The position numbers and the translations under genes are program-made. Source: Parcubacteria group bacterium Licking1014_17 (GTDB lineage: Bacteria > Patescibacteriota > Minisyncoccia > 2-02-FULL-40-12 > IGHO2-01-FULL-4-A). Taken from it: a DNA stretch of 64,000 nucleotides. Under the pieces are notes generated by a model, which saw only the letters and a program-made list of their open reading frames with translations, was not told where the DNA came from and searched no databases. Location of the stretch: positions 6,717 to 70,716 of the forward strand of contig VMGJ01000004.1 of assembly GCA_007376485.1 (NCBI GenBank), read 5' to 3'. Positions 2,183-47,933 of the stretch are shown here, one piece after another (the stretch's first letter is position 1; every line of letters starts with the position of its first letter).

Positions 2183-2749
2183 ATGACTATCAACATGAAC
2201 ATAAAAAAATCAATTTCTTCAATTTTGCTTGTTCTGCTTGTCCCGGGGGGCATTATACCTTTTGTTGATGCCCATACACCCGGCGATACGGCTGAATCAG
2301 CGCTTGGCAATGTGTTGGCGTATATTACCGCCACCCAGTCGCCTACCGGCGATGAGGAAACTGTCGGAGTGAAGCCGAAGATCGTTCAAAATTCATATTT
2401 CGAAACGATTACTTCGCCGAAGATTATTCGCGATCTGCAAGCCCTGCTCAATCCGACTGTCAGAGAAATGACGGTTACGGTTACCGCCTATTCCTCAACT
2501 CCCGGCCAAACCGACAGCACACCGTTTATCACCGCCCGCAATACAATGGTTAGGGACGGCATCGTAGCGGCAAACTTCCTGCCTTTCGGGACCAAAATCA
2601 AAATCCCGGAGAAATTCGGCAACAAGGTATTCGTCGTTGAAGACCGCATGAATTCCCGTTACGACAAGCGTATTGACGTATGGTTTGAAAACACTCAAAC
2701 CGCGCTGGAATTCGGTGTCAAAAATCTCAAAATCCAAATATTGGATTAA
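2183..2749 (+). CDS. secreted 3D-domain protein (MltA/RlpA-like double-psi beta-barrel cell-wall-binding domain)
   Basis: Signal peptide; VTVTAYS...G.T.SG...ARN..VRDGIVAAN...G.KI.IP...VF.VEDRMNSRY.KRIDVWF matches the 3D domain (three conserved Asp). Confidence 0.75.
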   Translation: MTINMNIKKSISSILLVLLVPGGIIPFVDAHTPGDTAESALGNVLAYITATQSPTGDEETVGVKPKIVQNSYFETITSPKIIRDLQALLNPTVREMTVTVTAYSSTPGQTDSTPFITARNTMVRDGIVAANFLPFGTKIKIPEKFGNKVFVVEDRMNSRYDKRIDVWFENTQTALEFGVKNLKIQILD

Positions 2750-2921: not shown

Positions 2922-2991
2922 TTTGGATGTTAATTTAGTTATTTCCAAACCAATTTTTTCGTTTTTGGGCCACCGGCCCGGGAGGTGATTT

Positions 2992-3846
2992 GTGAGATTC
3001 TTTAATTGTTTCTTGTTGGCATTTCTGGTTTTTTCTTTGGCTATCCCCCTCCCCCTTGGTGCGGAAATCATCCGAGCCAAGGACCGAAGAGTCCCCCAAT
3101 CGAGCGAGGGTACCATCGAGGTCGCGGGTGCAGGGGCTCCTCAGGCCGCTCCGCCAGCAACAGTTCCCCAAGTCCTTCAGTGGAAACCGTCCATTAGGAG
3201 AACAAACCCCTTTGTCCGCGGTGGGTTCCCGTCGTGGGAATCTGTGAAAAGATTTTCTCAAAGCCAGAAATTTGAGGTCTTCAAGAAAAATCTGCGATCC
3301 TATGAAGGATTCGCCGAAGGAGAATGGGGAAATATCATCGACACGATATCTAGGGGGACCACCAAAAATGTGGTGTTTGTAGAAATACCCCCCGGTATGG
3401 TGGTGCATCAGATGATGAGTGGCACCCGAATGATCCCGGAGGTTCAAGTGGCCGAGAGCCCAGCCCCTGCGTGGGCGATTTATACGGGGTATAGATGGCT
3501 CCTCTTTTTCCAATGTTGCGGGAATATTAGTTGGGTAGGACCGGATAAGATTTCGATACCCTCCCAAGAATTCGAAGAAAAACCCGTGCAGATTGAAAAA
3601 GAACCATCGCCAGTACCGACACCTACGCCCTCTGAGGCGGTTAAACCATCCCGTGTGATAAAAGAGTGGGTCCAGCCACCGCCGTGCGCGACGCACAAGA
3701 AAAGCAGCAAGAAGAAGTGGCTGGCGGCGATCATTGGTGGTGTTGCCATCTCCGCTGGTATTGCTATTGGTACTCGAGGACATGGCGAAAGCCATCCGCT
3801 GGACCCGGTTACTCATACGAACGATCGAGTACCTTCTAGCCATTAA
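2992..3846 (+). CDS. secreted Pro/Arg/Gly-rich hypothetical protein with C-terminal TM anchor (GTG start)
   Basis: RBS ggaggtga 6 nt upstream of GTG; clear signal peptide MRFFNCFLLAFLVFSLAIPLPLGA; competes with an antisense 302-aa ORF (2935..3843), judged spurious because the + frame has SD + signal peptide. Confidence 0.5.
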   Translation: MRFFNCFLLAFLVFSLAIPLPLGAEIIRAKDRRVPQSSEGTIEVAGAGAPQAAPPATVPQVLQWKPSIRRTNPFVRGGFPSWESVKRFSQSQKFEVFKKNLRSYEGFAEGEWGNIIDTISRGTTKNVVFVEIPPGMVVHQMMSGTRMIPEVQVAESPAPAWAIYTGYRWLLFFQCCGNISWVGPDKISIPSQEFEEKPVQIEKEPSPVPTPTPSEAVKPSRVIKEWVQPPPCATHKKSSKKKWLAAIIGGVAISAGIAIGTRGHGESHPLDPVTHTNDRVPSSH

Positions 3847-4053: not shown

Positions 4054-4082
4054 TTGACATATATAGAAGCATTTGTTATATT
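4054..4082 (+). promoter_or_regulatory. consensus sigma70 promoter TTGACA(4054-4059)-N17-TATATT(4077-4082)
   Basis: Read directly; about 70 nt upstream of the 1025-aa surface protein gene. Confidence 0.5.
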
Positions 4083-4152: not shown

Positions 4153-7100
4153 ATGAATACCATCAAAAACAGCAAGGTATGGTTTATCGCAGTGCCATTG
4201 GTCGTTCTGGCAATTTTTGCCGTACCAATGCTAATCACGGAGAATGCTAATGCTATCTCCTTTGATACGTTAAATGCCAGGTTTGTTTCCTACGAAAACG
4301 TGCCGACAACTCTTTGCACAGATGAAGTGCATTTGGTCACTATGACCCTGCAAAATACCGGCACCGAAACATGGACTTCGGCCAAAAATATCAGGCTTGG
4401 CTCTCAAAATCCGGAGAACAACAATAACTGGGGATGGACCAGAGTTGACTTGGAAGAGCATGTTGTTGCGCCCAGCCAGCATTTGGTTCTTACTTTTTAC
4501 ATCCGCGCGCCTCTTACCGCCGGAACTTATAATTTCCAATGGGGGATGCTTCAGGAAAATGTTACTTGGTTTGGGGACTACACGGCTAATATGCCAATTC
4601 AGGTAAAAAATTGCGGCACGCCAACTCCTACCCCAACTCCGACACCGACTTCTTCTCCTACCGAATTAAAATGCCCGATTAGCAACGCGGCCAATAGAAC
4701 AATATTTACTTTCCCTGAAAGAAACTCGGAATATATTAGGGCCAACAGGACTCAAGAAGAAGCCACTTTCGGTCCGGATTCATTTAATTTAGCTAGTGGC
4801 ATTTATAAAGTTACTTTGGTGTCTTTTGATTGGCACTCAATTTATGGAGGTCAAAACCAGTCAAACGAACAATATAAAGTAATCCTGAAAAACGGAGGCG
4901 CTACGGTTGCCACCTCCAACGCCAGCGCCGATATTCCGGAAAGTCAGGATTGGCAGACAACGGTTACCAACACCGCGCTCGCGCTAACTGGTGCCGCGAA
5001 TTCAATAACCGCCATTCATGCTTTTTACCCGACTTCCAACGCCAACAGCTTGATTCCAATCTGCGCCGCGTTTGATTTGGTTCAACAGCAACCGGTTTTA
5101 CCTACTGTTAATATTAAGGCCAACGGCTCGGATGGACCTATCACGATTGATTACAATACTTCCACTACTTTGAGCTGGACATCCAAGAATGCCACGAGTT
5201 GTGTCGCTTCAAATGGCTGGAGCGGAACGAAGGCTACCTCTGGTTCCGAATCAACCGGTAATCTAACCTCAAATCACACCTACACTATAACCTGCAGCAA
5301 TGCCAACGGTTCCGACACCGATAGCGTGACTGTTAAAGTAAGGCAGCAAGAGGTTTTGCCCACCGTCGACATAAAAGCCAACGGCTCGGACGGGCCAATC
5401 ACGGTTGACTACAACACATCGGCTAATTTGAGCTGGACTTCAAGCAACGCTACGAGTTGTGTTGCTTCCGATGATTGGTCAGGCAGTAAAGCCACTTCAG
5501 GTTCGGAATCAACCGGTAATCTGACTTCAAATAAAACCTTCACTATAACTTGCAATAATCAATTCGGTTCCGATACCGACAGCGTAACTGTAAAAGTAAG
5601 ACAGGCCACATTGCCTACTGTCGACATCAAGGCCAACGGCTCTAATGGACCGATTACGATTAATTACAACACATCGGCTACCTTAAGTTGGAATTCAACC
5701 AATGCTGACTCTTGTGTCGCTTCAAACGGCTGGAGTGGAAACAAATCTACTTCGGGATCCGAATCAACGGGCAACCTGACCTCAAATAAAACATATACTA
5801 TCACCTGTTCAAATCAGTATGGTTCTGATTCAGACAGCGTAACGGTGAATGTGAGCCAGGCGGTTTTACCTACCGTTGACATTAAAGCTAATAGTTCGGA
5901 TGGGCCTATCACGATTAATTACAACACTTCAGCTACTTTGGGCTGGACATCAACTAATGCTGACAGCTGTGTTGCTTCAAATGGCTGGAGCGGAAACAAA
6001 TCAACCAGCGGCTCGGAATCAACAGGTAATCTAACATCAAACCACGTCTATACTATTACTTGTAGTAATACTAATGGCTCGGCCAGCGATTCTGTAACGG
6101 TTAACGTCCAGAACCAAGTAATACCTACGGTCAATCTTTTGGCTAATGGCTCCCACGGTTCGATTACGATTAATTACAACACTTCGGCTAATTTAAGCTG
6201 GGATTCAACTAATGCCAATTATTGTATTGCTTCAAATGATTGGAGCGGCAGTAAATCAACCAACGGTTCGGAATCAACGGGCAATCTGACAAACACCAGA
6301 ACTTATACTATCACCTGCTACAATAACAACGGCTCCGCCTCCGATTCAGTCACGGTTTACGTTAATAATCAGAACAACTATCCAACTGTTGATTTGCTCG
6401 CCAATGGTTCACATGGCTCAATTACGATTCCGAACAATACTTCCACTACTTTGAGCTGGAGCTCAAGCAATGCCAATACGTGTTATGCTTTCAACGGCTG
6501 GACCGGCACAAAGTCAACTTATGGTTCTGAATCAACCGGCAACTTAACTTACAGCAAGACTTATACAATCTCTTGCAGTAATTCTTACGGCTCCGCCTCC
6601 GATTCAGTCACGGTTAATGTCGGAAATCCCACGGGCCAAGACATGGTCAGCCTCCAGAAATTCGGTTCAAATATTACCCGCGGGCAGAGTGGCGACTACT
6701 CAACCATCACGGTTTACCCGAATGACACCGTCAGATTCGCGATTCACGTTACTTCACTGACTTCCAACACTCTGTATAACGTTAGAATAAGCGATGCCTT
6801 GCCGGCTGGGTTTACTTACGTGAACAGCAGCACGACACTTGACGGCATTCTTGTCAGCGACGGAATCACCAATACCGGCATCAACATCGGCACGTTGACT
6901 CCGAATCAGGAAAGAATTGTCCGTTTTGACGCAAGAGCCGCTTCAGGTTCCGGATTAACGGCTGGCACCTCGTATGTAAGCAATATCGCCTACGCCGACG
7001 CCGATAGTATGAACCGCGTTACGACCCAGCTTTCTATCACGATAGTCAATAGCACTGTTCCTAACGTTCCAACCGGTACTACGGGTACGGTTGCCATGGC

Positions 7101-7230
7101 CTTGGCCCTCGGCGCATTAGTGACTCTTATGTACATGGGCTACACCAGAACCGGCGCCTTCAAAAAGCGCGACGCCCAAAGCATCGCCAGGAAAAACAGA
7201 AACGACAAGAACAAGTTTAACTTCGCCTAA
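4153..7230 (+). CDS. large modular cell-surface protein: signal/TM, NBR1/CARDB-like beta-sandwich domain, TPTPTPTPTPT linker, unknown domain, 6 tandem 84-aa Ig-like repeats, DUF11-like domain, C-terminal sorting signal NVPTGT + TM + basic tail ending KFNFA
   Basis: 1025 aa; repeat consensus LPTVDIKANGSDGPITI.YNTS..LSW.S.NA.SCVAS.GWSG.K.TSGSESTGNLTSN.TYTITC.N..GSDSDSVTV.V; DUF11-like LP.G..YV.GST..DG block; terminal hydrophobic stretch followed by R/K-rich tail. Confidence 0.85.
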   Translation: MNTIKNSKVWFIAVPLVVLAIFAVPMLITENANAISFDTLNARFVSYENVPTTLCTDEVHLVTMTLQNTGTETWTSAKNIRLGSQNPENNNNWGWTRVDLEEHVVAPSQHLVLTFYIRAPLTAGTYNFQWGMLQENVTWFGDYTANMPIQVKNCGTPTPTPTPTPTSSPTELKCPISNAANRTIFTFPERNSEYIRANRTQEEATFGPDSFNLASGIYKVTLVSFDWHSIYGGQNQSNEQYKVILKNGGATVATSNASADIPESQDWQTTVTNTALALTGAANSITAIHAFYPTSNANSLIPICAAFDLVQQQPVLPTVNIKANGSDGPITIDYNTSTTLSWTSKNATSCVASNGWSGTKATSGSESTGNLTSNHTYTITCSNANGSDTDSVTVKVRQQEVLPTVDIKANGSDGPITVDYNTSANLSWTSSNATSCVASDDWSGSKATSGSESTGNLTSNKTFTITCNNQFGSDTDSVTVKVRQATLPTVDIKANGSNGPITINYNTSATLSWNSTNADSCVASNGWSGNKSTSGSESTGNLTSNKTYTITCSNQYGSDSDSVTVNVSQAVLPTVDIKANSSDGPITINYNTSATLGWTSTNADSCVASNGWSGNKSTSGSESTGNLTSNHVYTITCSNTNGSASDSVTVNVQNQVIPTVNLLANGSHGSITINYNTSANLSWDSTNANYCIASNDWSGSKSTNGSESTGNLTNTRTYTITCYNNNGSASDSVTVYVNNQNNYPTVDLLANGSHGSITIPNNTSTTLSWSSSNANTCYAFNGWTGTKSTYGSESTGNLTYSKTYTISCSNSYGSASDSVTVNVGNPTGQDMVSLQKFGSNITRGQSGDYSTITVYPNDTVRFAIHVTSLTSNTLYNVRISDALPAGFTYVNSSTTLDGILVSDGITNTGINIGTLTPNQERIVRFDARAASGSGLTAGTSYVSNIAYADADSMNRVTTQLSITIVNSTVPNVPTGTTGTVAMALALGALVTLMYMGYTRTGAFKKRDAQSIARKNRNDKNKFNFA
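5095..6620 (+). repeat. six tandem ~252-bp coding repeats (Ig-like domain array)
   Basis: Near-identical nucleotide blocks (e.g. ggctcggatgg(a/g)cc(t/a)atcacg, ggttc(c/g)gaatcaac(c/g)ggtaat) recurring every ~252 bp. Confidence 0.85.
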
Positions 7231-7262
7231 ACGGATATCTTAACGTAGGGCGGATTCAGAAA

Positions 7263-7898
7263 ATGAAATCGAGGGTCAGGTTCGCATTGCTATTTCTCAT
7301 TTCCGTTTTACTTCTCGTTATAGTGCTCAACGGGCGGTACTTTTACGCCAACGCGGTTTACTCGCTGAATCAGCCGGTATCCAATTCGACGCCGGCACCG
7401 GAAATCAGGGTGTTCATACCTCCGGTAAAAGAAGTCCCAAACGTAAAGCCTTTGCCCGACAGCGCTACATTGGTGATACCGAAAATCAATGTTTCCGTTC
7501 CTATTGTCTTCGATATCAACGGCAACAGCGAGAAAAGCATATATGACAATCTAAACCGCGGGGCGGTCCATTACTCAAACACCCCCAAGCCCGGCATGCT
7601 CGGAACAGCGATGATATTCGGCCATAGCTCTGATTACATCTGGAAGAGAAATGCCTATGCGTCCGTTTTCGCCCTTCTGGACAAACTGGAACCGGGAGAC
7701 GTGATGTACGTAAAGTACAGCGACGGCAGAAGATTTGATTTCAGGGTTAATCAAAAGATAATATTCGACCCTAATGCCAACGATTGGCGAATCCAAGAAA
7801 TGGCGTCCGCGAAAACGCCGACACTCATGCTGATAAGCTGTTGGCCGGTCGGCACCGCCAGCAAACGCATAGCCGTCGAAGCAATTGGGATTAAATAA
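7263..7898 (+). CDS. sortase-family transpeptidase (membrane-anchored)
   Basis: N-terminal TM; catalytic His in MIFGHSSDY, Cys in TLMLISCWP (TLxTC-like), Arg in SKRIAVEAI; immediately downstream of a substrate-like protein with sorting signal. Confidence 0.75.
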   Translation: MKSRVRFALLFLISVLLLVIVLNGRYFYANAVYSLNQPVSNSTPAPEIRVFIPPVKEVPNVKPLPDSATLVIPKINVSVPIVFDINGNSEKSIYDNLNRGAVHYSNTPKPGMLGTAMIFGHSSDYIWKRNAYASVFALLDKLEPGDVMYVKYSDGRRFDFRVNQKIIFDPNANDWRIQEMASAKTPTLMLISCWPVGTASKRIAVEAIGIK

Positions 7899-7904
7899 GA
7901 CGAA

Positions 7905-7939
7905 CTAAAACATCTCCGCCTCCGGCGGAGGTGTTTTAG
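7905..7939 (+). terminator. rho-independent terminator
   Basis: 14-bp stem aaaacatctccgcc / ggcggaggtgtttt with 3-4 nt loop, followed by T-rich tract, after the sortase stop. Confidence 0.65.
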
Positions 7940-8062
7940 TTTCCGTTAAAATCGGCTGTGGAAACATTATTTTCTGTTTTAATGATATAATAACGGCGAA
8001 CAATCATATTTTTTTTAAAACGGGTGATGCTTTAAAAATAGGCGTAACCCGGGTTTAATGTC

Positions 8063-11000
8063 ATGGAAATCATACCGGCACCAGTAAAGACACCTTTTTA
8101 TAAAAAACCTGGTTTTTGGTTTCTGACCCTTTTGTTTTTGCTTCTCATCAGGGCGGAAGTTTATGTGTTGAGCGTTGACCGGCAGGTAAACCAAGTTGCC
8201 CTAATAAGCGCCACAGGCGCCGGCTGCACGACTCTTGCCCATCCCATCGCGGTAAAAGTCAGCATGCCGAATTCTCAAGAAAGCGGCTGGTTCATTGGGG
8301 TGGGTGATATCCCCGGCGCTGCCGCCTTTGACGAATCAAACATTAAAGCAGCTATTCAGAATTGGCCAGACGTTGACGGGCTTTTCGTTGGCACGGCCAA
8401 CGGTGATGGCGCGGGCGGTCCTGATGGTACTACCGATGACCGCGCCGGCTGGTTCATTATGGACTGGGGTTGTTTTAAAGATTTAGCCGGAAACGACATC
8501 GCTGAACAAGAATACGGCGTAAACGAAGGAGGAGACATATATGTGGGAACAAGCGCCACAAGCTTAAATGTTAACCCCACGCATCTATCGGGCAATCCCA
8601 ACGCTTCGGGCTGGAAGTATGTAAGCAGCATATCAGAATCCGGTTGTAGCAATTGTCTCAATAGTTTCGATATAGGATTAAATAACGGCGCTGAGTACAA
8701 ATATGTCTATTTTTGGAGCAATGGCAGTCCGGCGGGGTGCGCACCGAGTTGCATCCAACAAGAAATAGATAATGGCACCTGCAAATGCGGGATAGATGAT
8801 AGGTCTTGTGGTTGTCGTGCCAATGGAACCGTGGGGATTTCCGGTTCCAATGTTCAATATATAGAAATACTACAATCACAAAACGGCGGCACGCCTACCC
8901 CGACGCCCAAACCGACGTCTACGCCAACCTCGACACCAACCCAACAGAGTAATAATTCTCAGTGCGTCAGCATTTCCGCTCCCGACACAGTAGAGCAGGG
9001 CAAGACATTTGACGCCACGGTGGTAATGAAAAACACCGGCGCTAAGCCGTGGACCGACCCCGACAATCCGCCCGATCCGGTTGGAGGCAAAGCAACTCCT
9101 CATAAACTCGCTTCCACAAATCCACGTGCCAATATGACGTGGGGGCTGAATGAAGTCGGTCTGCCTGTCTCTAATGTCGACCCGGGAGAAAAGGCGACAT
9201 TTAATTTCAGCGTCACCGCTCCCGCAACCGCCGGCACTTACAGTTTCGCCTGGCAAATGAGAGAAGACTGGATTAAATGGTTTGGGGCGGTTTGCAGCAA
9301 AAACATACAAGTAGTCCAGCCGGCTCTCGTGAATAACGCCGAATGTGTGAGTATCACGGCGCCGGATTCGGTTGAAAAAGGCAAGACATTTGACGCCACG
9401 GTGGTAATGAAAAACACCGGCGCTAAGCCGTGGTCGGATCCCGACACCGACGGTAACAGTTACCCCCATAAACTCGGCTCGGATAATCCGAAAAATAATA
9501 TGAATTGGGGGCTTTCGAGAGTGAGCTTGCCGTTATCGCCCGTGTTGCCCGGCCAAACCGCGACGTTTGATTTTACCGCCACCGCTCCTTCGGTTGCCGG
9601 CATTTACGCGTTCGACTGGAGAATGGTTGAGGAATGGACCGAATGGTTTGGCACGGCGGGCTGTCATAAAAATATCGTTGTTACGGAACCCTACGTCCCT
9701 CCGCCCACCGTTGACATTAAAGCCAATAATTCTGATGGACCCATAACAATTCCCTACAACTCATCCGCCGCGTTATCATGGACATCTAAAAATACCGCGA
9801 GCTGTACCGCCTCGAACGGCTGGAGCGGAATGAAATCAATCAATGGTTCCGAATCAACCGGCGGTTTAATTTCTTCAAAAACTTATACTATTAGCTGTGT
9901 AGGCGCCAACGGAACGGCTTCTGACAGTGTTACTGTCAATGTCGAAAACCGGATATTACCCGTGGTGGATATCAATGCCAACGGCTCGGATGGACCGATT
10001 ACTGTTCCCTATAACTCATCGGTTTCTTTGACCTGGACATCAACCGATGCCGATAGTTGCTCTGCTTCCGGCGATTGGTCCGGCGGCAAAGCCACGGGCG
10101 GGACGGAAGATACCTCGGCGCTAATCAGCAGTAAGACCTATACAATCACTTGTAACAACCAGTACGGTTCGGATTCCGACAGCGTCACTGTCAATGTCGG
10201 CAGTCAAACTTTACCTTCGGTAGACGTAAAAGCCAACGGCTCGGACGGACCAATTACAATTCCTTATAATTCCACAGTGACATTGAGCTGGACTTCCATA
10301 AACGCTACTACTTGCGCCGCTTCCGGCGATTGGTCCGGCGGCAAAGCAATCAATGGTTCGGAAAATACCGGCTTACTGGCATTGAGCCGCATTTATACAA
10401 TCACCTGCGTAAATGGTTACGGTTCCGGTTCGGATAGCGTTGCCATTAATATAAGCAATCCAACCCCAACCCTGAACCCAACTCCAAGCCCGAATAGTTC
10501 CGGCTCGGTTAGCATTCAAAAATTCGGGATGAATATAACCAAGGGAGCGACGGTTGAATCCATAAGTATTACCGCCGATCCGAATGACACAGTCAGATTC
10601 GTCATCAGAGTGCGCTCTCTTTCCAATGGCTACGTCTTCAACGCCAGGGTGGTTGATACCTTGCCCAGCTGGTTAGGTTATGTAAACGGCAGCACTACTA
10701 TCGACGGTATTCTTGTCAGTGATGGCATAACGGGCGCCGGGCTGAATATCGGAACGCTTGCTCTGAATCAGGAAAAAATCATCCGTTTCGACACGGTGGT
10801 ATCGAACGCAAACATCGTCCCGCAGGGAACTTCTTACATTACAAATATCGCCTACATTGACGCCGACAACGTTGCCCGCTCCTCTGTCCAGCTGTCCATT
10901 AATATCGTAAACGGCTCCGTTCCCAACATTCCGACGGGAACTTTCGGCACAACTTTGCTGGCATTGGCGTTGAGCGCCTTACTGACGCTCGTCTACCTCA

Positions 11001-11068
11001 CATACAGAATTTTCAAGAAAAAAGGCGGCTCAAGCAAAGATAAAGATAAATTCAACTTTGCCTCTTAA
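8063..11068 (+). CDS. second large modular cell-surface protein: N-terminal TM, Cys-rich domain, PT linker, two duplicated NBR1/CARDB-like domains, three 84-aa Ig-like repeats, DUF11-like domain, sorting signal NIPTGT + TM + basic tail ending KFNFAS
   Basis: 1001 aa; shares repeat family, DUF11-like domain and C-terminal signal with ORF 4153..7230 but in a different module order. Confidence 0.85.
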   Translation: MEIIPAPVKTPFYKKPGFWFLTLLFLLLIRAEVYVLSVDRQVNQVALISATGAGCTTLAHPIAVKVSMPNSQESGWFIGVGDIPGAAAFDESNIKAAIQNWPDVDGLFVGTANGDGAGGPDGTTDDRAGWFIMDWGCFKDLAGNDIAEQEYGVNEGGDIYVGTSATSLNVNPTHLSGNPNASGWKYVSSISESGCSNCLNSFDIGLNNGAEYKYVYFWSNGSPAGCAPSCIQQEIDNGTCKCGIDDRSCGCRANGTVGISGSNVQYIEILQSQNGGTPTPTPKPTSTPTSTPTQQSNNSQCVSISAPDTVEQGKTFDATVVMKNTGAKPWTDPDNPPDPVGGKATPHKLASTNPRANMTWGLNEVGLPVSNVDPGEKATFNFSVTAPATAGTYSFAWQMREDWIKWFGAVCSKNIQVVQPALVNNAECVSITAPDSVEKGKTFDATVVMKNTGAKPWSDPDTDGNSYPHKLGSDNPKNNMNWGLSRVSLPLSPVLPGQTATFDFTATAPSVAGIYAFDWRMVEEWTEWFGTAGCHKNIVVTEPYVPPPTVDIKANNSDGPITIPYNSSAALSWTSKNTASCTASNGWSGMKSINGSESTGGLISSKTYTISCVGANGTASDSVTVNVENRILPVVDINANGSDGPITVPYNSSVSLTWTSTDADSCSASGDWSGGKATGGTEDTSALISSKTYTITCNNQYGSDSDSVTVNVGSQTLPSVDVKANGSDGPITIPYNSTVTLSWTSINATTCAASGDWSGGKAINGSENTGLLALSRIYTITCVNGYGSGSDSVAINISNPTPTLNPTPSPNSSGSVSIQKFGMNITKGATVESISITADPNDTVRFVIRVRSLSNGYVFNARVVDTLPSWLGYVNGSTTIDGILVSDGITGAGLNIGTLALNQEKIIRFDTVVSNANIVPQGTSYITNIAYIDADNVARSSVQLSINIVNGSVPNIPTGTFGTTLLALALSALLTLVYLTYRIFKKKGGSSKDKDKFNFAS
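8960..9690 (+). repeat. internal duplication (2 x ~380 bp) encoding paired NBR1/CARDB-like domains; contains an exact 54-nt repeat (8999-9052 = 9379-9432)
   Basis: ggcaagacatttgacgccacggtggtaatgaaaaacaccggcgctaagccgtgg occurs twice verbatim. Confidence 0.8.
9700..10455 (+). repeat. three tandem ~250-bp coding repeats of the same Ig-like family as 5095..6620
   Basis: Repeat consensus PTVDIKANGSDGPITIPYNSS..LSWTS.NA.SC.ASG.WSG.KA..GSE.TG.L.SSKTYTITC.N.YGSDSDSVTVNV. Confidence 0.8.
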
Positions 11069-11101
11069 ATATAATCGGAACCTCCGGCGCCAGCCGATAA
11101 T

Positions 11102-11740
11102 ATGAAACTCCGAAACCGGCTCATATTAATATTTATATCTCTGACGGTATTTTTTCTGATTATTCTCAATGGCAGATATTTATACGCGAACGTGTCCTAT
11201 CTGGTGAATAAGCCCACGCCTTTGGTAACGGCATCCAAACCTTCGGCGCAGATATTCATTCCTCCGGTGAAAGTGGCTTCGGGGCAAAAATCACTGCCCA
11301 ATAAAGCCATATTGGTAGTTCCAAAAATTAATGTCTCCATGCCGATAGTTTTCGGTATTAACGGAAACAGCATCAGCAGTATGTACGACGGGCTTAATCG
11401 CGGCGTGGTGCATTATTCCTTGTCTCCTATGCCCGGCACCATGGGCGCGGCGATGATTTTAGGACACAGTTCCGATTACATCTGGAAGAATAATCCTTAC
11501 GGAGCCGCTTTCGCTTTATTGAACAAACTCAAACCCGGGGATACGATGTTTGTGGAATACAGCGATGGTAGGAGGTTTAATTTTAAAGTCAACCAATCGG
11601 TGATATTCAACCCCCTCTCCGTTGATTCGGAAATTGAACTTATGCAGGCGGCAAAAGTGCCTTCCTTGATTCTTGTCAGCTGCTGGCCGGTCGGTTCAGT
11701 CGTCAAGCGGATAGCAGTAGAAGCGATAGCGATAAAATAG
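11102..11740 (+). CDS. sortase-family transpeptidase, paralog of 7263..7898
   Basis: Same architecture and catalytic motifs (MILGHSSDY, LILVSCWP, VKRIAVEAI); ~50% identical to the first sortase by eye. Confidence 0.75.
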   Translation: MKLRNRLILIFISLTVFFLIILNGRYLYANVSYLVNKPTPLVTASKPSAQIFIPPVKVASGQKSLPNKAILVVPKINVSMPIVFGINGNSISSMYDGLNRGVVHYSLSPMPGTMGAAMILGHSSDYIWKNNPYGAAFALLNKLKPGDTMFVEYSDGRRFNFKVNQSVIFNPLSVDSEIELMQAAKVPSLILVSCWPVGSVVKRIAVEAIAIK

Positions 11741-11867: not shown

Positions 11868-11922
11868 CAACATATTATTCCCAAAACTTGATTTTTTGAC
11901 CAGAAACTGAGATAATATAATT

Positions 11923-12180
11923 ATGAGAGGGTTCGTAAAATGCGCCCTGTGTGGTTGTATAATTTTAAAGATAGCTTTAGATATATTTCCTGTTGTCTGC
12001 AACCATTGCACAGAGGAAATAGAAAAAAAAGAGCAACCCCATATAGAAGTTTCAGTTTTTGCCAGTAAATATAATGCTCCGGCTAATAGATCATCGTATT
12101 ACTTATCTGGCGTGGGCTCGACTGGTGTGGTAGGGGCTATACCCGAATCCTTGAACGATTTTTCCAATAATCAGAAATAA
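11923..12180 (+). CDS. small Cys-containing hypothetical protein
   Basis: ORF only (85 aa; CALCGC...CNHC). Confidence 0.25.
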   Translation: MRGFVKCALCGCIILKIALDIFPVVCNHCTEEIEKKEQPHIEVSVFASKYNAPANRSSYYLSGVGSTGVVGAIPESLNDFSNNQK

Positions 12181-12320
12181 ATTAATTAAGTAAATCAATT
12201 CTAACTGCCCCAATACAGAAAATAGTGACGGGTTGGAATATTTTTCCTCCCGGCGGATAGATGAAACTCAGAAAATAGCACTTTTGGGAGTGCTATCTAT
12301 TAGAGAATCGGTTTTTTATA

Positions 12321-13631
12321 TTGTATTTTATGTTGAATCAAGAAGAACTTAAAGTATTACAGGAAATAGCCCACGAGAAAGGTGGTAAGTGTTTGTCTAA
12401 AGAATATAGGGGTTCCAATTTTAAGCTTCTCTGGGAGTGTAGCTTGGGTCACAGATGGCTATCTGCGCCCTGTAAAATAAAGGGAGGTAGATGGTGTCAT
12501 ACGTGCGCTGGAAATATCAAGTTAACTATAGATGAAATGCATAAAATCGCGAAACTTCGTGGTGGTAGATGTTTGTCTACGAAGTATACTAATATTGACA
12601 CAAAATTAGAATGGGAGTGTTCTGACGGTCATCATTGGGTTGCTACGCCAGATACTATTAAGGGAGGTGGATGGTGTCCCTATTGCGGTTTAAGAGGGAT
12701 AAGAGAGAATTTTTGCCGCTTGATATTAGAAAATATATTTAACAAAAATTTCCCTAAAGTAAGTCCAGTATGGCTAAAAACAAAAGACGGCAATAGAATG
12801 GAGCTTGATGGCTACTGTAATGATTTGAAGCTTGCTTTTGAATACCACGGAGAGCAACATTTTAAGAACTTAAAATTTTTTTACAGAAACCGTGGCTCGC
12901 TTCAACAAAGGATAACCTATGACAAGTACAAGAGGAAACTTTGTGAAAAAATACAGATAAAATTAATTGAAATCCCATATCTTATAGAGGACAAGGATAT
13001 ATATCAATACATACTAGCTAAATTGAAGGAGTTAAGAGTTAGAATCCCCAAACATAACGCCAAAAATATTTCAAAAATTAATAAGCAATATCTTAATAGT
13101 AGGTTGAAATATTTTTATCAAATAGCTAGTAAAAGAGGTGGTAAATGTTTATCTAGTGTCTATTTGGGTATCAATCATAAACTTAGATGGCGGTGCTCCG
13201 AGGGACACATATGGAAAGCAACGCCATCAAACGTAAAGAGGTACCACTGGTGCCCATCGTGTGCAGGCTGTAAGAGTTATACAATCAACAAGATTAGGGA
13301 GCTTGCGAAACTTCGTGGTGGTAAGTGTTTATCTACCGAGTATAAAGGCGCACATGGTAAACTTAAGTGGCAGTGCTCCAAAGGACACATATGGGAGACC
13401 ACACCGGACAGTATAAGGAACGGGACGTGGTGCCCCAAGTGCAATGGTAATATTAGTTACACTATTGATGAAATCAGCGAACTTGCGAAATCGTGCGGTG
13501 GCAAGTGCTTATCAAAAAAATATGGGGGTGCACATGGTAAACTTAAGTGGCAATGTTCTGAAGGACATATATGGGAAACTACACCTAATAGTATAAGGAG
13601 AGGGACATGGTGTCTAAAATGTAGAAGTTAA
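12321..13631 (+). CDS. multi-zinc-ribbon repeat protein with central Vsr/DUF559-like PD-(D/E)xK nuclease-fold domain
   Basis: Five ~45-aa repeats (R/K)GG(K/R)CLS..Y....KL.W.C..GH.W...P..I..G.WCP.C, each preceded by a helix (EI.ELAKLRGG). Central block ELDGY...LAFEYHGEQHF...YDKYKRKLCEKIQIKLIEIPY matches the lvIEvDG..H...D..R..L...G signature of DUF559/Vsr-like endonucleases. Confidence 0.6.
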   Translation: MYFMLNQEELKVLQEIAHEKGGKCLSKEYRGSNFKLLWECSLGHRWLSAPCKIKGGRWCHTCAGNIKLTIDEMHKIAKLRGGRCLSTKYTNIDTKLEWECSDGHHWVATPDTIKGGGWCPYCGLRGIRENFCRLILENIFNKNFPKVSPVWLKTKDGNRMELDGYCNDLKLAFEYHGEQHFKNLKFFYRNRGSLQQRITYDKYKRKLCEKIQIKLIEIPYLIEDKDIYQYILAKLKELRVRIPKHNAKNISKINKQYLNSRLKYFYQIASKRGGKCLSSVYLGINHKLRWRCSEGHIWKATPSNVKRYHWCPSCAGCKSYTINKIRELAKLRGGKCLSTEYKGAHGKLKWQCSKGHIWETTPDSIRNGTWCPKCNGNISYTIDEISELAKSCGGKCLSKKYGGAHGKLKWQCSEGHIWETTPNSIRRGTWCLKCRS

Positions 13632-13748
13632 GCCAAAGTATTGTTAATAGTTTTAATCTTTTCAATTTCCGTTCCAACCGTCTCCCAGGCGGACTGAATG
13701 GAGTGAAGGACGGTCGAAGCCCCGCAACTGTTTACGGGACGTAAGGAA

Positions 13749-14042
13749 TCAATTTTTTAGTGTCTCAAGATTTATCTGATTACTATATTCGATAAATCTA
13801 TTGGTATTATATCTAATTTCAATCAATTGAACCTGATAAAAACTATTATCATATCTTTGATCCTTATGTCCACCAGCGTATATTATTTTAATCATATTTT
13901 CTTCTTTTATATAAACAATTCTTGCACCCCGACGTTTGCACACATTTTCCTCTGGAAGATTTATCCCAGCGTGAAAGGTTTTATTTTGTAACTCCTTATT
14001 TTTAATGTGATGTACTGGGGTTTCTCCTTGGCATTTTACCAT
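13749..14042 (-). CDS. small RelE/ParE-like putative toxin (tentative)
   Basis: 97 aa; RRGARIVYIKEENMIKIIYAGGHKDQRY resembles the G.YRIIY...V.IL.IGHRKD.Y core of RelE/ParE; 107 nt downstream of the Panacea-domain gene. Confidence 0.35.
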   Translation of the reverse strand: MVKCQGETPVHHIKNKELQNKTFHAGINLPEENVCKRRGARIVYIKEENMIKIIYAGGHKDQRYDNSFYQVQLIEIRYNTNRFIEYSNQINLETLKN

Positions 14043-14149
14043 CTATACTTAAATAACGGATAGCTCTAGACATCTCTTTACCTAGGGTTTTATACCATCT
14101 GTCGTGGCATTTTTTTATGTCATCGAGAACATCAGAATGAATCATTACT

Positions 14150-14677
14150 TTAATCATCATTCAGATCCATCTCTCCAAAGCTATTCCGGTAGAATGCAAG
14201 ATAATATGGGATTTCCTCACCATACCCAACCATCTTGTAAGGAGGCTCAGACTGGGCTATTTTTTCTAGATCGCCCGCGGTTTCGAGTTTAAACTTTTCG
14301 ACTAGTTGTTTTAATATCCTTAATTCATTCTCATCAAAAATTTTAATATTAGGTTCGGAATTGGGTATGATTTTTTCCAAACCATAACTATTTGCCTCTT
14401 GGATATCAATAATGCCTTCATTTTTTAAGTCATTTAATGCTTTGTAGAATAATTTTGGTTCTGGCATCGGCCCATAGTCTTTTTTTGTATAAGGCAACCC
14501 CGTCAAAGACTTTCCTCGCGTAAGTTCAAACAATGTAAAATCAATAAAATATAAGAGTTTTGCCAGCTTCTTTTTTCCAACATCAAACCCCCCGTTTTTG
14601 GCTATAAACAAAACTGCATTCTTAAACTTTTCCTTATTATATTGGCTCTTTTTTGATAGTAACATTAGTAAAATCAT
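14150..14677 (-). CDS. Panacea-domain (DUF4065, SocA/GepA-like) putative antitoxin
   Basis: 175 aa; NAVLFIAKNGGFDVGKKKLAKLLYFIDFTLFELTRGKSLTGLPYTKKDYGPMPE matches the Panacea domain KL.KLLYF.D core. Confidence 0.6.
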   Translation of the reverse strand: MILLMLLSKKSQYNKEKFKNAVLFIAKNGGFDVGKKKLAKLLYFIDFTLFELTRGKSLTGLPYTKKDYGPMPEPKLFYKALNDLKNEGIIDIQEANSYGLEKIIPNSEPNIKIFDENELRILKQLVEKFKLETAGDLEKIAQSEPPYKMVGYGEEIPYYLAFYRNSFGEMDLNDD

Positions 14678-14960
14678 TATATCAGATTATGTATAAAAAG
14701 TTGACAACTAGTTGAATATGAACATAGTATGAACTTTCGTCAATATTGTTATGGTTTTTGTCCGAATCGGCAGAGATAGTTATCTATTTCATGAATAAGC
14801 AGTTTTAACCGATTTCCCAATGTCCCTCCATTTATTTAACTCCAATAATAAGCGTTCCAATTCCGTCCCACTAGGCGGACAAGTTTTATAATCTCTCCCA
14901 GAAGTGGATATTTCCCCCGCTTTTTTGTGATAAGTTATAAATAGTATCAATTTTACGTCT

Positions 14961-15734
14961 ATGAAGAAAATACTATTGATCGTCTTTGTTTCCGCCGCGG
15001 CGATGGTGTTAGCCGTGTCTTCCGCCCGAGCCGACAATGTTTACGCGATTACCGCTAGCCCCTCATATTCTGACACTTTCACTCTTGGCGGATCGGCTTT
15101 GGTCGGGTACAAAATTACATCTACCAATAGCGATGGTCAGACCGGTTGTAATGCCAGCGACGGCACGTCGGCTGTTGTCACTATAATAGCCCCTGACCAT
15201 ATAACTCCAACTCCGCCTTCGCTTACATTCACTAAATGCAGTGTCGCTAATTCTAACATTCAGGATGTGGTGTTTACCGCCGATCAAGCCGGCGATTATA
15301 TCATCGGCGCTTCGGCTTCCGACGCCGGAATTGGAACTTATGACACAGTGGCACACGGGATATTCACGCTTCATGTTTTGCCCGGATCAAGTCCAACCCC
15401 GTCTCCATCCGAAACACCTACACCTACACCATCCCCCACACCAACTCCTTCTCCAACGCCTACGCCGAGTCCTACCCCATCGCCATCTCCGACACCCACA
15501 ACGACTTTAACTCCATCGCCCACGCCGACTCCTTCTCTATCTCCCACACCGACTTCTTCCCCGACACCTACACTAACCCCGACTCCGACCCCCTCGCCCA
15601 CACCCACCCCGTCATCTACGCCATCGCCCTCGCCTTCACCATCAGACAAATTTAAAATGCCAACAATTGACAATTTCTTTATTCTAAATAAATTCCGAGC
15701 AATTTGGGCCAAGTGGCATCAGTTGGGATTCTGA
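14961..15734 (+). CDS. secreted protein: signal peptide, ~140-aa N-terminal domain, long (PTPSPT)n low-complexity linker
   Basis: ORF translation; signal peptide [24 protein letters not shown]. Confidence 0.6.
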
Positions 15735-16882
15735 TCAAGACGCCACAATTTTTGAACGCAATCAATAATTATCGGAGTCGCCCGAACAATCTCTTCCTTC
15801 GTGGTCCATCTGCCCATGGTTATGCGGATGTTGTCGTTTTTGGTGGCCCCGATGGCTTTAAGAACATGGGATGGGCCGGTTTCGTTCGCCGTGCAGGCGG
15901 AGCCGATTGAAACACCAACGCCGTTTTTATCAAGAAGCAAAACCAGCATTTCGCCGGCTATCCCCTTAAAAGAAACATTTATATTATTAGGCAGGCGGTT
16001 TTTTATGTCGCCGTTTATGGAAGCACCCGGGATTTTGAGCAGTTCACCAATTAAATAATTTCTTAATTTCAGAAGCTGTTTTGATTCCCCTGTTTTTCGG
16101 AAGTCGGCGATTTTCAGCGCTTCGGCAAAAGCGGAAATCGCGGGAACATTTACTGTGCCCGGCCTCAATCCTCTTTCATGGTCGCCGCCGTATAATACCG
16201 GCTCCAATTCAATCCCCCTTTTTATATAAAGGCACGCCGCTCCTTTTGGCCCGTAAATTTTTGAACTGTTTATAGTCATCAAGTCCACGTTCAGTTTGTT
16301 GGCATCAAGCGGGAGGAAACCGGACGCCTGGCAGGCATCGGTATGAAAAAACGCCGGCGCGCCAGTTTCTTTTCTTTTCTTTTTTATAACTTCGCCTATT
16401 TTTGATATCGGTTGAATTGTGCCGATTTCGTTGCTGGCGCAGATTACCGAAATAAGAGTGGTATCCCTCCTGATCGACTTCGCGATATCTCCCGGATTTA
16501 CCAATCCGCTATTATTAACTCCGATGTAGGTAATTTTAAACCCCTCCTTTCCCAAATGCTCAAAAACATCCGAGACCGATTTATGCTCTATTTGGGTAGT
16601 AATTAAATGCCTGCCCTTGTTTTTGTTGGCTCTGGCAACCCCCAAAATGGCGAGGTTGTTGGATTCGGTGCCGGAACCGGTAAAAATTATTTCTTCCGGC
16701 CTTGAATTCAGGACTTCGGCTATGGCTCGTCTGGATTTCTCAAGTTCTTTAGCTGCTTCCCTGCCGATTTTATGTAGAGATGAAGAATTCCCGTACTTCT
16801 CAAGCTGTTTAACATAAAAATCCCTGATAATGGGGTCAATGGGCGTCGCGGCGGCATAATCCAAATAAACATACTTTTTCAT
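15719..16882 (-). CDS. cysteine desulfurase (class V aminotransferase, IscS/NifS family)
   Basis: 387 aa; LDYAAATP N-terminus, PLP-lysine region SSKIYGPKG, overall NifS/IscS layout. Confidence 0.85.
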
Positions 16883-16921: not shown

Positions 16922-17635
16922 CTATTTCAGCGCCTCGTCTACCAACTGAAACACTTTGTCGGCGTGCGCGCCTTCAATGAATTGGTTGTTGACGAAGAAG
17001 CTGGGGGTGGCTCTTACTCCGAGAGAAACGCCGTAATCCAAATCTTTTTGGATTTTATTGGTAAATTTGCCGGTGGTGTAACAATTTTCAAACTGTGTCT
17101 TATCTAAGCCGATATCAATCGCCCACTGGTGCAAAGCCGCTTCGGTGAGTTTTTCCGCCGCGGTTTCGTAAATTTTATTATGCATCTCCCAGAATTTACC
17201 CTGGTCGCCGGCGCACTCGGCCGCCATAGCCAATGGTTTGGCAAGGGCGTGGAAATCAAGCGGATAGTTTTTATAAACCAGCCGGACTTTGCCCATTTTT
17301 ATATAATTATTATCTAAAATACTAAAGGCATCGGCCCAAAACTTATGGCAGTAGGGGCACTGGAAATCGCTGAATTCGAATATCGTAACCTTGGCTTTGG
17401 AATCGCCCAAAACTCTGTCGCCAGACGTGACTTTAGGCTTGGGCTGGGTAGGAACACCCGACTGCGCCCTTGTGAAATATATGCTCCCCGCTATCAAAAC
17501 CGCCGCTATGATGATGGACACCGGCAATAGAATCTGGATTATAAGCGGCTTCCGCGGTTTGTTCGCCGGCAGAGGCGAAACCGGAACGGTCTGGTTGTTA
17601 TCGCTGTTATTTTGGTTAAATATCCCTTCTTCCAT
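16922..17635 (-). CDS. DsbA-like thiol:disulfide oxidoreductase, membrane-anchored
   Basis: N-terminal TM then thioredoxin fold with CPYC active site (FSDFQCPYCHKF). Confidence 0.8.
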   Translation of the reverse strand: MEEGIFNQNNSDNNQTVPVSPLPANKPRKPLIIQILLPVSIIIAAVLIAGSIYFTRAQSGVPTQPKPKVTSGDRVLGDSKAKVTIFEFSDFQCPYCHKFWADAFSILDNNYIKMGKVRLVYKNYPLDFHALAKPLAMAAECAGDQGKFWEMHNKIYETAAEKLTEAALHQWAIDIGLDKTQFENCYTTGKFTNKIQKDLDYGVSLGVRATPSFFVNNQFIEGAHADKVFQLVDEALK

Positions 17636-22451: not shown

Positions 22452-22769
22452 TTAAAGCAGAATATTTTTACATTTTGGACATTGCCCCGTACCTACTAAT
22501 AGTCCAATCATAGTACCACATTTAGAACACGAGAGGTCACTATACGTTGAATCTGATATTTTTATAGCAGTGGTCAGACCATCTGCTGATTGCACTTTTA
22601 TATTCGATAATTTATTGACTATCACGTTTGCCGCTTGACCGCCGCTTTGATTAATAGTTGTTACGGAATGACTGATTCCAATCTCCTTTTTGTTAAAATT
22701 CAAAAATCTCAATCTCAGTGAGCCAAATAATTTTTTAAAAATACCGGACATATAATTCAGAAATTCCAT
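22452..22769 (-). CDS. small hypothetical protein with C-terminal zinc ribbon (CSKCG...CPKC); 13-nt overlap with upstream RM gene
   Basis: ORF translation. Confidence 0.4.
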   Translation of the reverse strand: MEFLNYMSGIFKKLFGSLRLRFLNFNKKEIGISHSVTTINQSGGQAANVIVNKLSNIKVQSADGLTTAIKISDSTYSDLSCSKCGTMIGLLVGTGQCPKCKNILL

Positions 22770-37211: not shown

Positions 37212-37453
37212 ATTTAAATCAGTAATAATAATAAGTGGTTTATTATACTGATAAGTTTAAATTATTAAATAATATCAATGTAATTTTATTAAATAACGTG
37301 TTTATAAATTATTTATAAATATCTTAATTTCTGATGCTAATTTATGGGGATTTTTATATTGGCTTCTAATACCTATTAATTTATTATTTATATCAATCAT
37401 TAATTAATAACAAACCAACAGTTTTATCCACAACCTATTATATATTACAGAAC
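37212..37453. promoter_or_regulatory. predicted oriC / DNA-unwinding element: ~80% AT dnaA-dnaN intergenic region with perfect DnaA box TTATCCACA (37424-37432)
   Basis: Read directly; additional near-consensus box TGTGTATAA at 38886-38894 in the dnaA/rpmH divergent region. Confidence 0.55.
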
Positions 37454-43162: not shown

Positions 43163-43182
43163 TTTATTTAAATTGTCATGCC

Positions 43183-44439: not shown

Positions 44440-44470
44440 AGAGGAGAATACAGAGAAATCATATTACAAA

Positions 44471-46267: not shown

Positions 46268-46272
46268 ATTAG

Positions 46273-46923: not shown

Positions 46924-46929
46924 ATTTGT

Positions 46930-47906: not shown

Positions 47907-47933
47907 GACTATTATTTATTAATCACATGGTCG

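Follow-up and report, generated by a model that had tools for sequence, protein, structure and literature searches.

A 64,000-nucleotide (nt) stretch of the genome of Parcubacteria group bacterium Licking1014_17 (contig VMGJ01000004.1, positions 6,717 to 70,716; hereafter the window) encodes two tandem cassettes, in each of which a large modular surface protein is followed by a small sortase-fold enzyme (substrate A with sortase A, then substrate B with sortase B; Table 1). We consider it likely that a surface protein and its own dedicated sortase form a cognate pair in each cassette, with a clade-specific C-terminal signal module that leads to wall anchoring. An earlier sequence-only reading of the stretch had proposed such dedicated pairs, and the layout agrees with it. 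All four of its open reading frames (ORFs) are present exactly, all on the plus strand, and each sortase gene lies closely behind (32 and 33 nt, with 164 nt between the two pairs) a protein whose C-terminus has the tripartite form described, namely a motif, 20 hydrophobic residues and a K/R-rich tail. The residues SVPN, with which that reading began the signal, are exact in substrate B, whereas substrate A has TVPN. A six-frame scan of the window found no ORF beyond substrates A and B with P.TG, LP.T, NP.T or PTG before a C-terminal hydrophobic stretch.

A conserved C-terminal signal module

Relatives were sought with an alignment of the sortase clade (patterns GHSS..W.) in genome and metagenome collections, since a single-protein scan of genome contigs had given none; 154 further loci were fetched in this way. 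When a tail hidden Markov model (HMM) was run against all ORFs of the fetched loci, 152 signal-bearing ORFs were obtained, of which 108 are distinct. Among these 108, P1 is Thr in 96% and P1' is Gly in 98%, P3 is Val (84%) or Ile (10%), P2 is divided among Pro (26%), Gln (19%), Ala (17%), Ser (17%) and Lys (13%), and P2' is mostly Pro (51%), Thr (22%) or Ala (10%). The three positions after P2' hold G/A, then D/E/G, then S/T/A. The transmembrane (TM) helix that follows spans about 17-20 residues, among them conserved small and hydroxyl positions (A/S, L, S/A, T, Y..Y), and beyond it comes a junction of the form Y (85%), x, x, Y (96%), T (80%), x, T/S (95%), x, x, F/Y (84%). The tail then starts with R/K, R/K, R (74%), E, A and, past about ten variable residues, ends in D-K-[ND]-[KR]-F-N-F or, more generally, in [FLM]-[ND]-F. 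The tail of substrate B is shorter than that of substrate A, with Y..Y, FKK and KFNF kept.

Since the T-G pair is retained in 96-98% of the 108 distinct homologous signals, the predicted sorting signal is evidently more than chance, and the near-invariance of this pair puts the motif in the LPXTG register, with V/I in the place of Pro and no conserved Leu. The motif proposed in the sequence-only reading, N[VI]PTGT, has to be narrowed accordingly to [VI]-x-T-G, its Asn and Pro not being conserved in relatives. Other members of the family have G, Q, K, A or S before V/I, which suggests that the Asn is private to the window genome; the nearest of them show RVPTGTV and GVATGTA at this place. The true distinguishing feature of the signal appears instead to be a family-wide module of about 60 residues that includes the TM helix and a cytoplasmic tail of about 20-30 residues.

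In an AlphaFold2 (AF2) model of the C-terminal 190 residues of substrate A (predicted local distance difference test, pLDDT, 68 overall and about 80 in the beta-sandwich), the motif falls in a linker of low confidence that joins the last beta-strand to the TM helix; this helix is interrupted at the junction T-G and is followed by a second, basic helix and a terminal coil, NKFNFA. The T-G of the motif sits 2-4 residues before the TM helix in an otherwise variable, flexible linker. The peptide IVNSTVPNVPTGTTG is proposed for complex prediction with sortase A (aa 60-211).

Curated models gave no Pfam or NCBIfam match to the tails even at E ≤ 10, only noise. The models covered include TIGR01167, PEP-CTERM-type models and TIGR03065, which we take to be 'srtB_sig_QVPTGV', the model for S. 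pyogenes T-antigen pilin signals. Measured against the LPXTG signal (PF00746/TIGR01167), the tails have the tripartite layout and lack both the L-P-x-T-G pentapeptide and a profile match. A literature search found no paper describing the module. The signal module and the enzyme lineage are therefore uncatalogued in the resources searched.

Sortase-fold enzymes outside the established classes

The sequence-only reading had taken both small ORFs for paralogous sortases, and the profiles agree. Both exceed the gathering score (26.6) of the Pfam sortase model PF04203 (sortase A, E 4.6e-21, 75.3 bits; sortase B, E 8.2e-18, 64.8 bits), and the general sortase model TIGR01076, with a cutoff of 39.35, scores 42.8 for sortase A (above) and 37.3 for sortase B (just below). 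The two are 59% identical with their His, Cys and Arg motifs aligned; GHSS, SCWP and KRI of both match the active-site His, Cys and Arg in alignments with the class C structures 2xwg and 2w1k, and GHSS, CWP and R are invariant in 34 relatives. An AF2 model of sortase A built on the clade alignment (pLDDT 85; predicted template modelling score 0.79) has an N-terminal helix (aa 2-35, membrane anchor), a disordered, variable linker (aa 36-66) and an eight-stranded sortase barrel with a short beta6/beta7 loop and no lid, so that the barrel and the N-terminal anchor of the superfamily are both present. Both ORFs therefore encode genuine sortase-fold enzymes, which have the full triad and are anchored by a membrane helix at the N-terminus, and which are presumed to be transpeptidases. 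GHSS and [ST]C[WY]P were considered as clade markers and set aside, as they also occur in Patescibacteria sortases that are not associated with the signal.

Profile-HMM classification did not assign the enzymes to any of classes A-F, as no class-specific NCBIfam model came near its cutoff. The class F model scored best (43.6 bits vs a cutoff of 166), followed by class D (40.6 vs 165), class C (37.4 for sortase A and 33.7 for sortase B vs 160), GN (30.5 vs 158) and class E (27.7 vs 160); the NCBIfam class A and class B models gave no match at all to the window sortases. Neither sortase has a class C lid with DP[FWY], aa 36-66 being variable and disordered. The window sortases appear to lie outside classes A-F. 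The sequence-only reading had placed the system closer to SrtB, with an N-x-P-T-G-T motif, NPxTx-like specificity and a SrtB-like enzyme. Both window proteins do read N[VI]PTGT, and the S. pyogenes enzyme that cuts EVPTG is of class B, but Asn and Pro vary even in the closest relatives, the class B profile does not match, the beta6/beta7 loop is short and class B structures are the most distant sortase matches, which makes this reading hardly credible.

Co-occurrence of signal and sortase

The link between module and enzyme was counted with each distinct sortase entered once and at least 3 kb required on both flanks. A signal-bearing protein lies in the locus of 33 of 33 clade sortases vs 0 of 21 more distant Patescibacteria sortases (Fisher p = 2e-15). 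All signal-bearing ORFs of at least 150 aa are on the strand of the sortase, usually 4-100 nt upstream of it, about 900-1000 nt upstream across a gene for a CAP-domain protein, or directly downstream. Orthologous substrates thus carry the signal, and the loss from orthologues that would have spoken against the sequence-only reading is not seen. In a reverse search with only the region comprising the signal and the CLIPPER (DUF11) domain before it, both contigs that showed neighbours had the order CLIPPER-CAP-sortase, with the sortase two genes downstream. Signal subtype also tracks sortase subclade, a correspondence confounded by phylogeny. More distant sortases (for example Doudnabacteria L056, L059, L069 and L074) adjoin proteins with [IV]APKTG[SP], a TM helix and a short basic tail, a signal that appears more conventional, yet is not LPXTG. 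Collectively, the module seems to be used by one clade of Paceibacteria/Yanofskybacteria-type sortases.

These counts also bear on whether the C-terminal module is an anchor that is never cleaved, a conserved TM helix and tail that could, for example, bind a cytoplasmic partner while the sortase acts elsewhere. Compared with classical signals, the tail is much longer and more strongly conserved, which is unusual for a segment that is discarded, and no curated sorting-signal model matches it. However, the near-invariant T-G lies in a flexible extracellular linker just before the TM helix, where sortases cut; signal and sortase co-occur without exception and on the same strand; the loci hold no other candidate substrate; and clustering of neighbouring genes in 34 loci found no universal third partner gene. 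We regard an uncleaved anchor as very unlikely.

Operon forms in relatives and the probable acceptor of the reaction

The nearest relatives are annotated as Candidatus Yanofskybacteria. At homologous sortases the gene order is conserved, with a CLIPPER protein, often a CAP-domain membrane protein, and the sortase, followed downstream by genes for an aminotransferase, a DsbA-like protein, DoxX, trigger factor and NusA; the same genes lie downstream in the window. The CAP/SCP-domain protein (PF00188), which has two C-terminal TM helices, separates the substrate from the sortase in 16 of the 34 distinct loci of the clade (examples in Table 1), and neither window cassette has it. In the window each sortase is paired with one substrate, whereas many relatives have one sortase with 3-5 signal-bearing proteins. 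In such multi-substrate operons the signal subtypes are position-specific and conserved between genomes, the upstream subtype being V-K-T-G-P-A ... L-N-F-[LS]-K and the downstream ones V-[PQ]-T-G-P-G ... D-P-[LM]-D-F-R-S and ... L-F-[ND]-F-R-R. Many relatives also have small substrates (265-350 aa) with a single CLIPPER domain.

We propose that wall anchoring in the window would proceed as follows. The substrate, which has an N-terminal signal peptide, would be exported via Sec and retained in the membrane by its C-terminal TM helix and basic tail. The sortase would recognise [V/I]-x-T-G in the linker outside the membrane and cut between Thr and Gly through its Cys-His-Arg triad, forming a thioacyl intermediate; cleavage at this bond is predicted because of the conservation, the strict co-occurrence and known sortase chemistry. 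The Thr carboxyl would then be transferred to an amine, most likely that of a peptidoglycan (PG) precursor. The window encodes a class A penicillin-binding protein, a Mur ligase and PG-binding proteins, which indicates that the organism makes PG, the usual acceptor of sortases. The product would be an adhesin-like fibre fixed to the cell surface, with a binding domain, a stalk of Ig-like (immunoglobulin-like) repeats and the CLIPPER domain. The conserved TM helix, Y-x-x-Y-T-x-T/S, basic helix and [FLM]-[ND]-F probably provide retention and/or a second recognition determinant, the latter being possible because the sortase anchor and a juxtamembrane LNGRF motif are conserved in part of the clade. 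By analogy, the remnant peptide may have a role after cleavage, as a function after cleavage is reported for LPXTG remnants of Streptococcus gordonii in work cited in PMC11326707.

Several points weigh against wall anchoring by a dedicated sortase. The cleavage site, the nucleophile and the product are all predictions. The sortase itself served to fetch the loci, whose genomes are related and share synteny; phylogenetic inertia therefore inflates the co-occurrence statistic, and the reverse search rests on two contigs (six matches in a word-indexed search, on short contigs). The tail of substrate B is without the T-x-T-G junction, and the module is thus not wholly indispensable. In addition, the architecture of the CPR (Candidate Phyla Radiation) envelope is not settled (PMC5220378).

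The acceptor could also be another subunit. The sortase would then join the Thr of [VI]xTG to a Lys of the next protein, with wall anchoring secondary, if it occurs, and the product would be a polymerised pilus or fibre. The relatives' operons, with one sortase, several signal proteins and position-specific subtypes, resemble pilus islands; the CnaA-like CLIPPER domain directly before the signal is typical of pilins and fibrillar adhesins; x-V-P-T-G of the window is the pilin motif cut by Spy0129; and the small single-CLIPPER substrates of relatives fit as well. Against this, the lid and DP[FWY] are missing where aa 36-66 are variable and disordered, the class C model scores 37 bits vs a cutoff of 160, each window sortase has one multidomain protein of about 1000 aa that looks like an adhesin and not like a pilin, no lysine of a pilin motif was identified, and the 64-kb window has no second (housekeeping) sortase. 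We judge polymerisation unlikely here, though clearly the strongest competitor. We take the ~1000-aa proteins of the window to favour transfer to the wall, and the multi-substrate operons of relatives to favour transfer to a pilus. A broader and equally doubtful proposal is that Paceibacteria/Yanofskybacteria-type Parcubacteria build sortase-polymerised fibres, a second, non-type-IV CPR pilus made by sortases outside A-F, in which the cytoplasmic part of the signal is itself functional. That part could be a TM-TM or juxtamembrane specificity determinant (LNGRF anchor) or a sensed remnant 'C-peptide'.

Comparison with known sortase systems

The closest parallel to the motif is found in Streptococcus pyogenes, where Spy0129, a class B enzyme, cuts between Thr and Gly of EVPTG, QVPTG and VPPTG in pilins (PMC3019223). 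Spy0129 (SrtC1) and SrtC2 share with the window the motif register, a nearly identical x-V-P-T-G sequence and Thr-Gly cleavage (predicted here), and they are likewise accessory sortases encoded beside their substrates; the T-antigen pilins have isopeptide-type Ig-like domains, as are predicted for the substrates here. The motif of the window signals thus appears to converge on streptococcal (E/Q)VPTG. However, the S. pyogenes signals are without the long conserved tail and terminal FNF, the P2 Pro of their motif is present in only about 26% of the parcubacterial family, and the enzymes differ in class (B in Spy0129, not in the window) and in host phylum (here Patescibacteria).

Class C pilin sortases (Streptococcus pneumoniae SrtC-1/3, Corynebacterium diphtheriae SrtA, Actinomyces oris SrtC1/2) are likewise clustered with their substrates and, as in relatives of the window, have several substrates per sortase, an arrangement that Gram-positive pilus islands share with the relatives' multi-substrate operons. 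The window sortases differ in having no lid, no C-terminal second TM helix and an HMM score far below the cutoff, and the parcubacterial signal does not have the Leu and Pro of LPXTG pilins. With the canonical LPXTG/class A system the cassettes share the tripartite layout, T-G at the scissile position (predicted here), the His-Cys-Arg fold, the N-terminal anchor and a PG-making host. Here, by contrast, the P4 Leu is not conserved, the P3 Pro is replaced by Val/Ile, and 20-30 tail residues with conserved motifs take the place of about 5-10 basic ones; the class A housekeeping sortase also acts genome-wide, whereas the parcubacterial enzyme appears dedicated and is clustered with its substrate.

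That CPR bacteria commonly have sortases is already known (PMC6744442). Other Patescibacteria sortases (Meheust et al. 2019, fam000526; Doudnabacteria-type) share the family, GHSS and [ST]C[WY]P, but their neighbours have [IV]APKTG[SP] signals rather than the [VI]xTG ... Y..YT.T ... FNF module. The Pam pili, a CPR pilus described in a 2026 preprint, were considered and found unrelated, being assembled by donor-strand exchange and not by a sortase, in Saccharimonadia and Microgenomatia. The SortPred paper holds no usable statement on Parcubacteria.

Modular architecture of the substrates

Substrate A runs from a signal peptide (aa 1-34) through an NBR1/FW-like domain, an unassigned region, six repeats and the CLIPPER/DUF11 domain to the sorting signal. 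The module counts of the sequence-only reading hold exactly under jackhmmer, with six repeats in A vs three in B (84-85 aa each) and one NBR1/FW-like domain vs two, and the one DUF11 domain that it gave to each substrate was found by Pfam and TIGR01451 in A and by TIGR01451 in B. The NBR1/FW-like domain of substrate A scores slightly below the gathering score of PF16158 (E 1.9e-5, 25.6 bits vs 28) and is recovered at E 3.9e-44 by jackhmmer seeded with the substrate B copy. Each 84-85-aa repeat unit of both substrates has two cysteines, and the repeats of substrate A show a 255-nt period in the DNA. The CLIPPER domain of substrate A is above threshold in both models (PF01345, E 4.2e-9, 37.2 bits vs gathering 24.6; TIGR01451, 30.2 vs 24) and forms a beta-sandwich in the AF2 model (pLDDT ~80); that of substrate B is below the gathering score of PF01345 (21.4 bits vs 24.6) and above the TIGR01451 cutoff (28.5 vs 24). 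The C-terminal 435 aa of substrate B are 57% identical to substrate A.

DUF11 has been renamed CLIPPER, a domain of CnaA-like fold, often with an intramolecular isopeptide bond, that is typical of pilins and fibrillar adhesins (PMC12617251). An attempt to assign the isopeptide triad by comparison with 9IFR (K715, D748, N806) was rejected, as the alignment is weak and partial (E 0.04), covers only an 'xxDxLxxGL' stretch, and places D748 by manual counting. The CLIPPER alignment shows a conserved Lys, within 'QKFG', and a conserved Asn, within 'TN.A', which are not equated with K715 and N806. A Foldseek search with the substrate model returned nothing diagnostic, the matches being Ig-like sandwiches of a generic kind (GH123 N-domains, C3c MG domains, chaperone-usher proteins); Streptococcus sanguinis PilB, at ranks 33 and 48, is not diagnostic either.

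A DsbA/thioredoxin-like protein is encoded at 16922-17635 (-), and its gene is syntenic with the sortase locus in relatives L004 and L007. As every 85-aa substrate repeat has two cysteines, there may be an oxidative-folding link between this protein and the repeats, a case we liken to that of MdbA in Actinomyces sortase-dependent pilus assembly, discussed for CPR by Meheust et al. 2019.

The family with CLIPPER and signal appears to be large. In a profile search of 1.84 billion representatives (50% clustering), 1157 matched CLIPPER plus signal at E ≤ 1e-10, a number that includes CLIPPER proteins without the signal, and 88 of the best 149 of these 1157 bear the signal, which in 80 cases stands at the extreme C-terminus; it is on these matches and signal carriers that we base the estimate. 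A profile of five 70-aa tails run against a 5.8-billion-protein index gave one match, holding too little information for an index of that size.

Other long conserved C-terminal modules occur in the CLIPPER representatives P0069, P0083, P0089, P0120 and P0133, and P0067, P0100, P0118, P0128 and P0132. One alternative C-terminus reads ..VTG[GS]N[SD]L.RN + TM + EY..W+.L+F+.A.WKI+ and a second ..YCR.RE.KLLE.LN....FYF+.K..FT...RFKKVYW; these may be further uncatalogued sorting signals. A 1416-aa ORF in locus L023 (3736-7983) has the signal module in an internal position (...SRFNFATAPL...) rather than at its end, which could reflect read-through, gene fusion, or a frameshift error in sequencing by which a substrate and the gene after it were run together.

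Duplication and transcription of the cassettes

That the cassette was duplicated and then diverged, as the sequence-only reading had it, is consistent with three observations. Sortases A and B are each other's closest relatives (59% identity vs at most 51% to any other), the cassettes are about 67% identical in their DNA, and the module numbers differ. Two clade sortases occur in one locus in only one other case among 164 loci. Since the sortases are mutually closest, the DNA has diverged to this extent and such pairs are so rare, the tandem duplication appears to be lineage-specific and not recent, followed by gain or loss of repeat modules. A promoter-like site before cassette A, with 11/12 matches the region's best, and a terminator-like hairpin with T-run behind sortase A (both consensus matches only; Table 1) suggest that each cassette is its own transcription unit.

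Table 1 Coordinates of the two cassettes and of CAP-domain genes in related loci (window positions, except where a locus is named)
Feature	Position (nt)	Strand	Basis or remark
Promoter-like site TTGACA-17-TATATT with upstream TG, before cassette A	4054-4082	+	consensus match only
Substrate A gene	4153-7230	+	1025 aa ORF, modular surface protein
Substrate A NBR1/FW-like beta-sandwich domain, single (aa 50-146)	4300-4590	+	PF16158, jackhmmer
Substrate A six tandem Ig-like repeats (aa 316-824)	5098-6624	+	E 1e-44 to 1e-50 each
Substrate A CLIPPER (DUF11) CnaA-like domain (aa 851-954)	6703-7014	+	PF01345, TIGR01451, model
Substrate A motif N-V-P-T-G-T (aa 971-976)	7063-7080	+	predicted scissile bond T974-G975
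Substrate A signal TM helix GTVAMALALGALVTLMYMGY	7084-7143	+	model helix 143-164, conserved positions
Substrate A 28-residue cytoplasmic tail TRTGAFKKRDAQSIARKNRNDKNKFNFA, ending KFNFA	7144-7227	+	sequence, alignment, model
Sortase A gene	7263-7898	+	211 aa ORF
Sortase A His121	7623-7625	+	
Sortase A Cys193	7839-7841	+	
Sortase A Arg202	7866-7868	+	
Terminator-like hairpin, then T-run, after sortase A	7917-7933	+	consensus match only
Substrate B gene	8063-11068	+	1001 aa ORF, modular surface protein
Substrate B two NBR1/FW-like domains (aa 301-420, 428-543)	8963-9691	+	PF16158 E 3.1e-14, two stretches
Substrate B three Ig-like repeats (aa 548-799)	9704-10459	+	84-85 aa each
Substrate B CLIPPER (DUF11) domain (aa 837-935)	10571-10867	+	PF01345, TIGR01451
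Substrate B motif N-I-P-T-G-T (aa 955-960)	10925-10942	+	predicted scissile bond T958-G959
Substrate B TM helix GTTLLALALSALLTLVYLTY and 20-residue tail RIFKKKGGSSKDKDKFNFAS, ending KFNFAS	10946-11065	+	sequence
Sortase B gene	11102-11740	+	212 aa ORF
Sortase B His122	11465-11467	+	
Sortase B Cys194	11681-11683	+	
Sortase B Arg203	11708-11710	+	
CAP/SCP-domain protein, locus L001	7074-7973		
CAP/SCP-domain protein, locus L007	7095-7991		
CAP/SCP-domain protein, locus L164	1524-2354		
CAP/SCP-domain protein, locus L165	2079-2939		

Significance

CPR bacteria (Patescibacteria) are thought to live attached to other cells, which makes their surface proteins central to their biology, yet these are almost wholly unannotated. 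The chemistry proposed for the cassettes is the expected one; the novelty lies in an uncatalogued module that is widespread in a poorly understood phylum. Our analysis has several implications: (i) The signal module and its cognate sortase clade offer a simple rule, transferable between genomes, by which the covalently displayed surface proteome of many Parcubacteria could be traced. (ii) There is a curation gap, with no Pfam or NCBIfam model for the module and with sortases outside classes A-F. (iii) [VI]xTG is a possibly orthogonal recognition motif for sortase-based protein ligation. (iv) It raises the question of why a signal peptide that is discarded would carry a conserved cytoplasmic tail.

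Other features of the window

The low-GC stretch (0.37) at 11900-15750, between sortase B and the aminotransferase gene, looks like an insertion relative to syntenic relatives; relative L004 has the order sortase, YggT-like, aminotransferase. It encodes a 436-aa protein built of treble-clef zinc-finger repeats (DUF4379/CapR; 12321-13631), a protein with a SocA/Panacea antitoxin domain (14150-14677, minus strand) and a secreted protein rich in Pro, Thr and Ser that has no Pfam match (14961-15734). Upstream of the cassettes, 2183-2749 (+) encodes a secreted protein of about 190 aa that also lies upstream of the cassette in 10 of 34 relatives (L001 5423-6004 and L004 2812-3372, for example). Its conserved C-terminal half reads TAYSS.P.QTDSTPFITA...DRMN.R...D.WF and has no Pfam match at E ≤ 0.1; it may resemble 3D/RlpA-like wall-hydrolase domains. 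Two opposite-strand ORFs overlap almost fully at 2992-3846 (+) and 2935-3843 (-), neither with a Pfam match, and the former is probably the real gene because it encodes a signal peptide and, at the C-terminus, a TM helix.

The genes dnaN and dnaA (36114-38836, minus strand) lie in the lowest-GC part of the window (0.36), and the window therefore probably spans the replication origin region; it shows no clear GC-skew switch. A Type ISP restriction-modification enzyme is encoded in a low-GC patch at 22757-25792 (-). At 42032-50657 (-), a TraG-like P-loop ATPase gene (44471-46267) is flanked by ORFs of 907, 418 and 376 aa without Pfam match, possibly a secretion or conjugation-like cluster.

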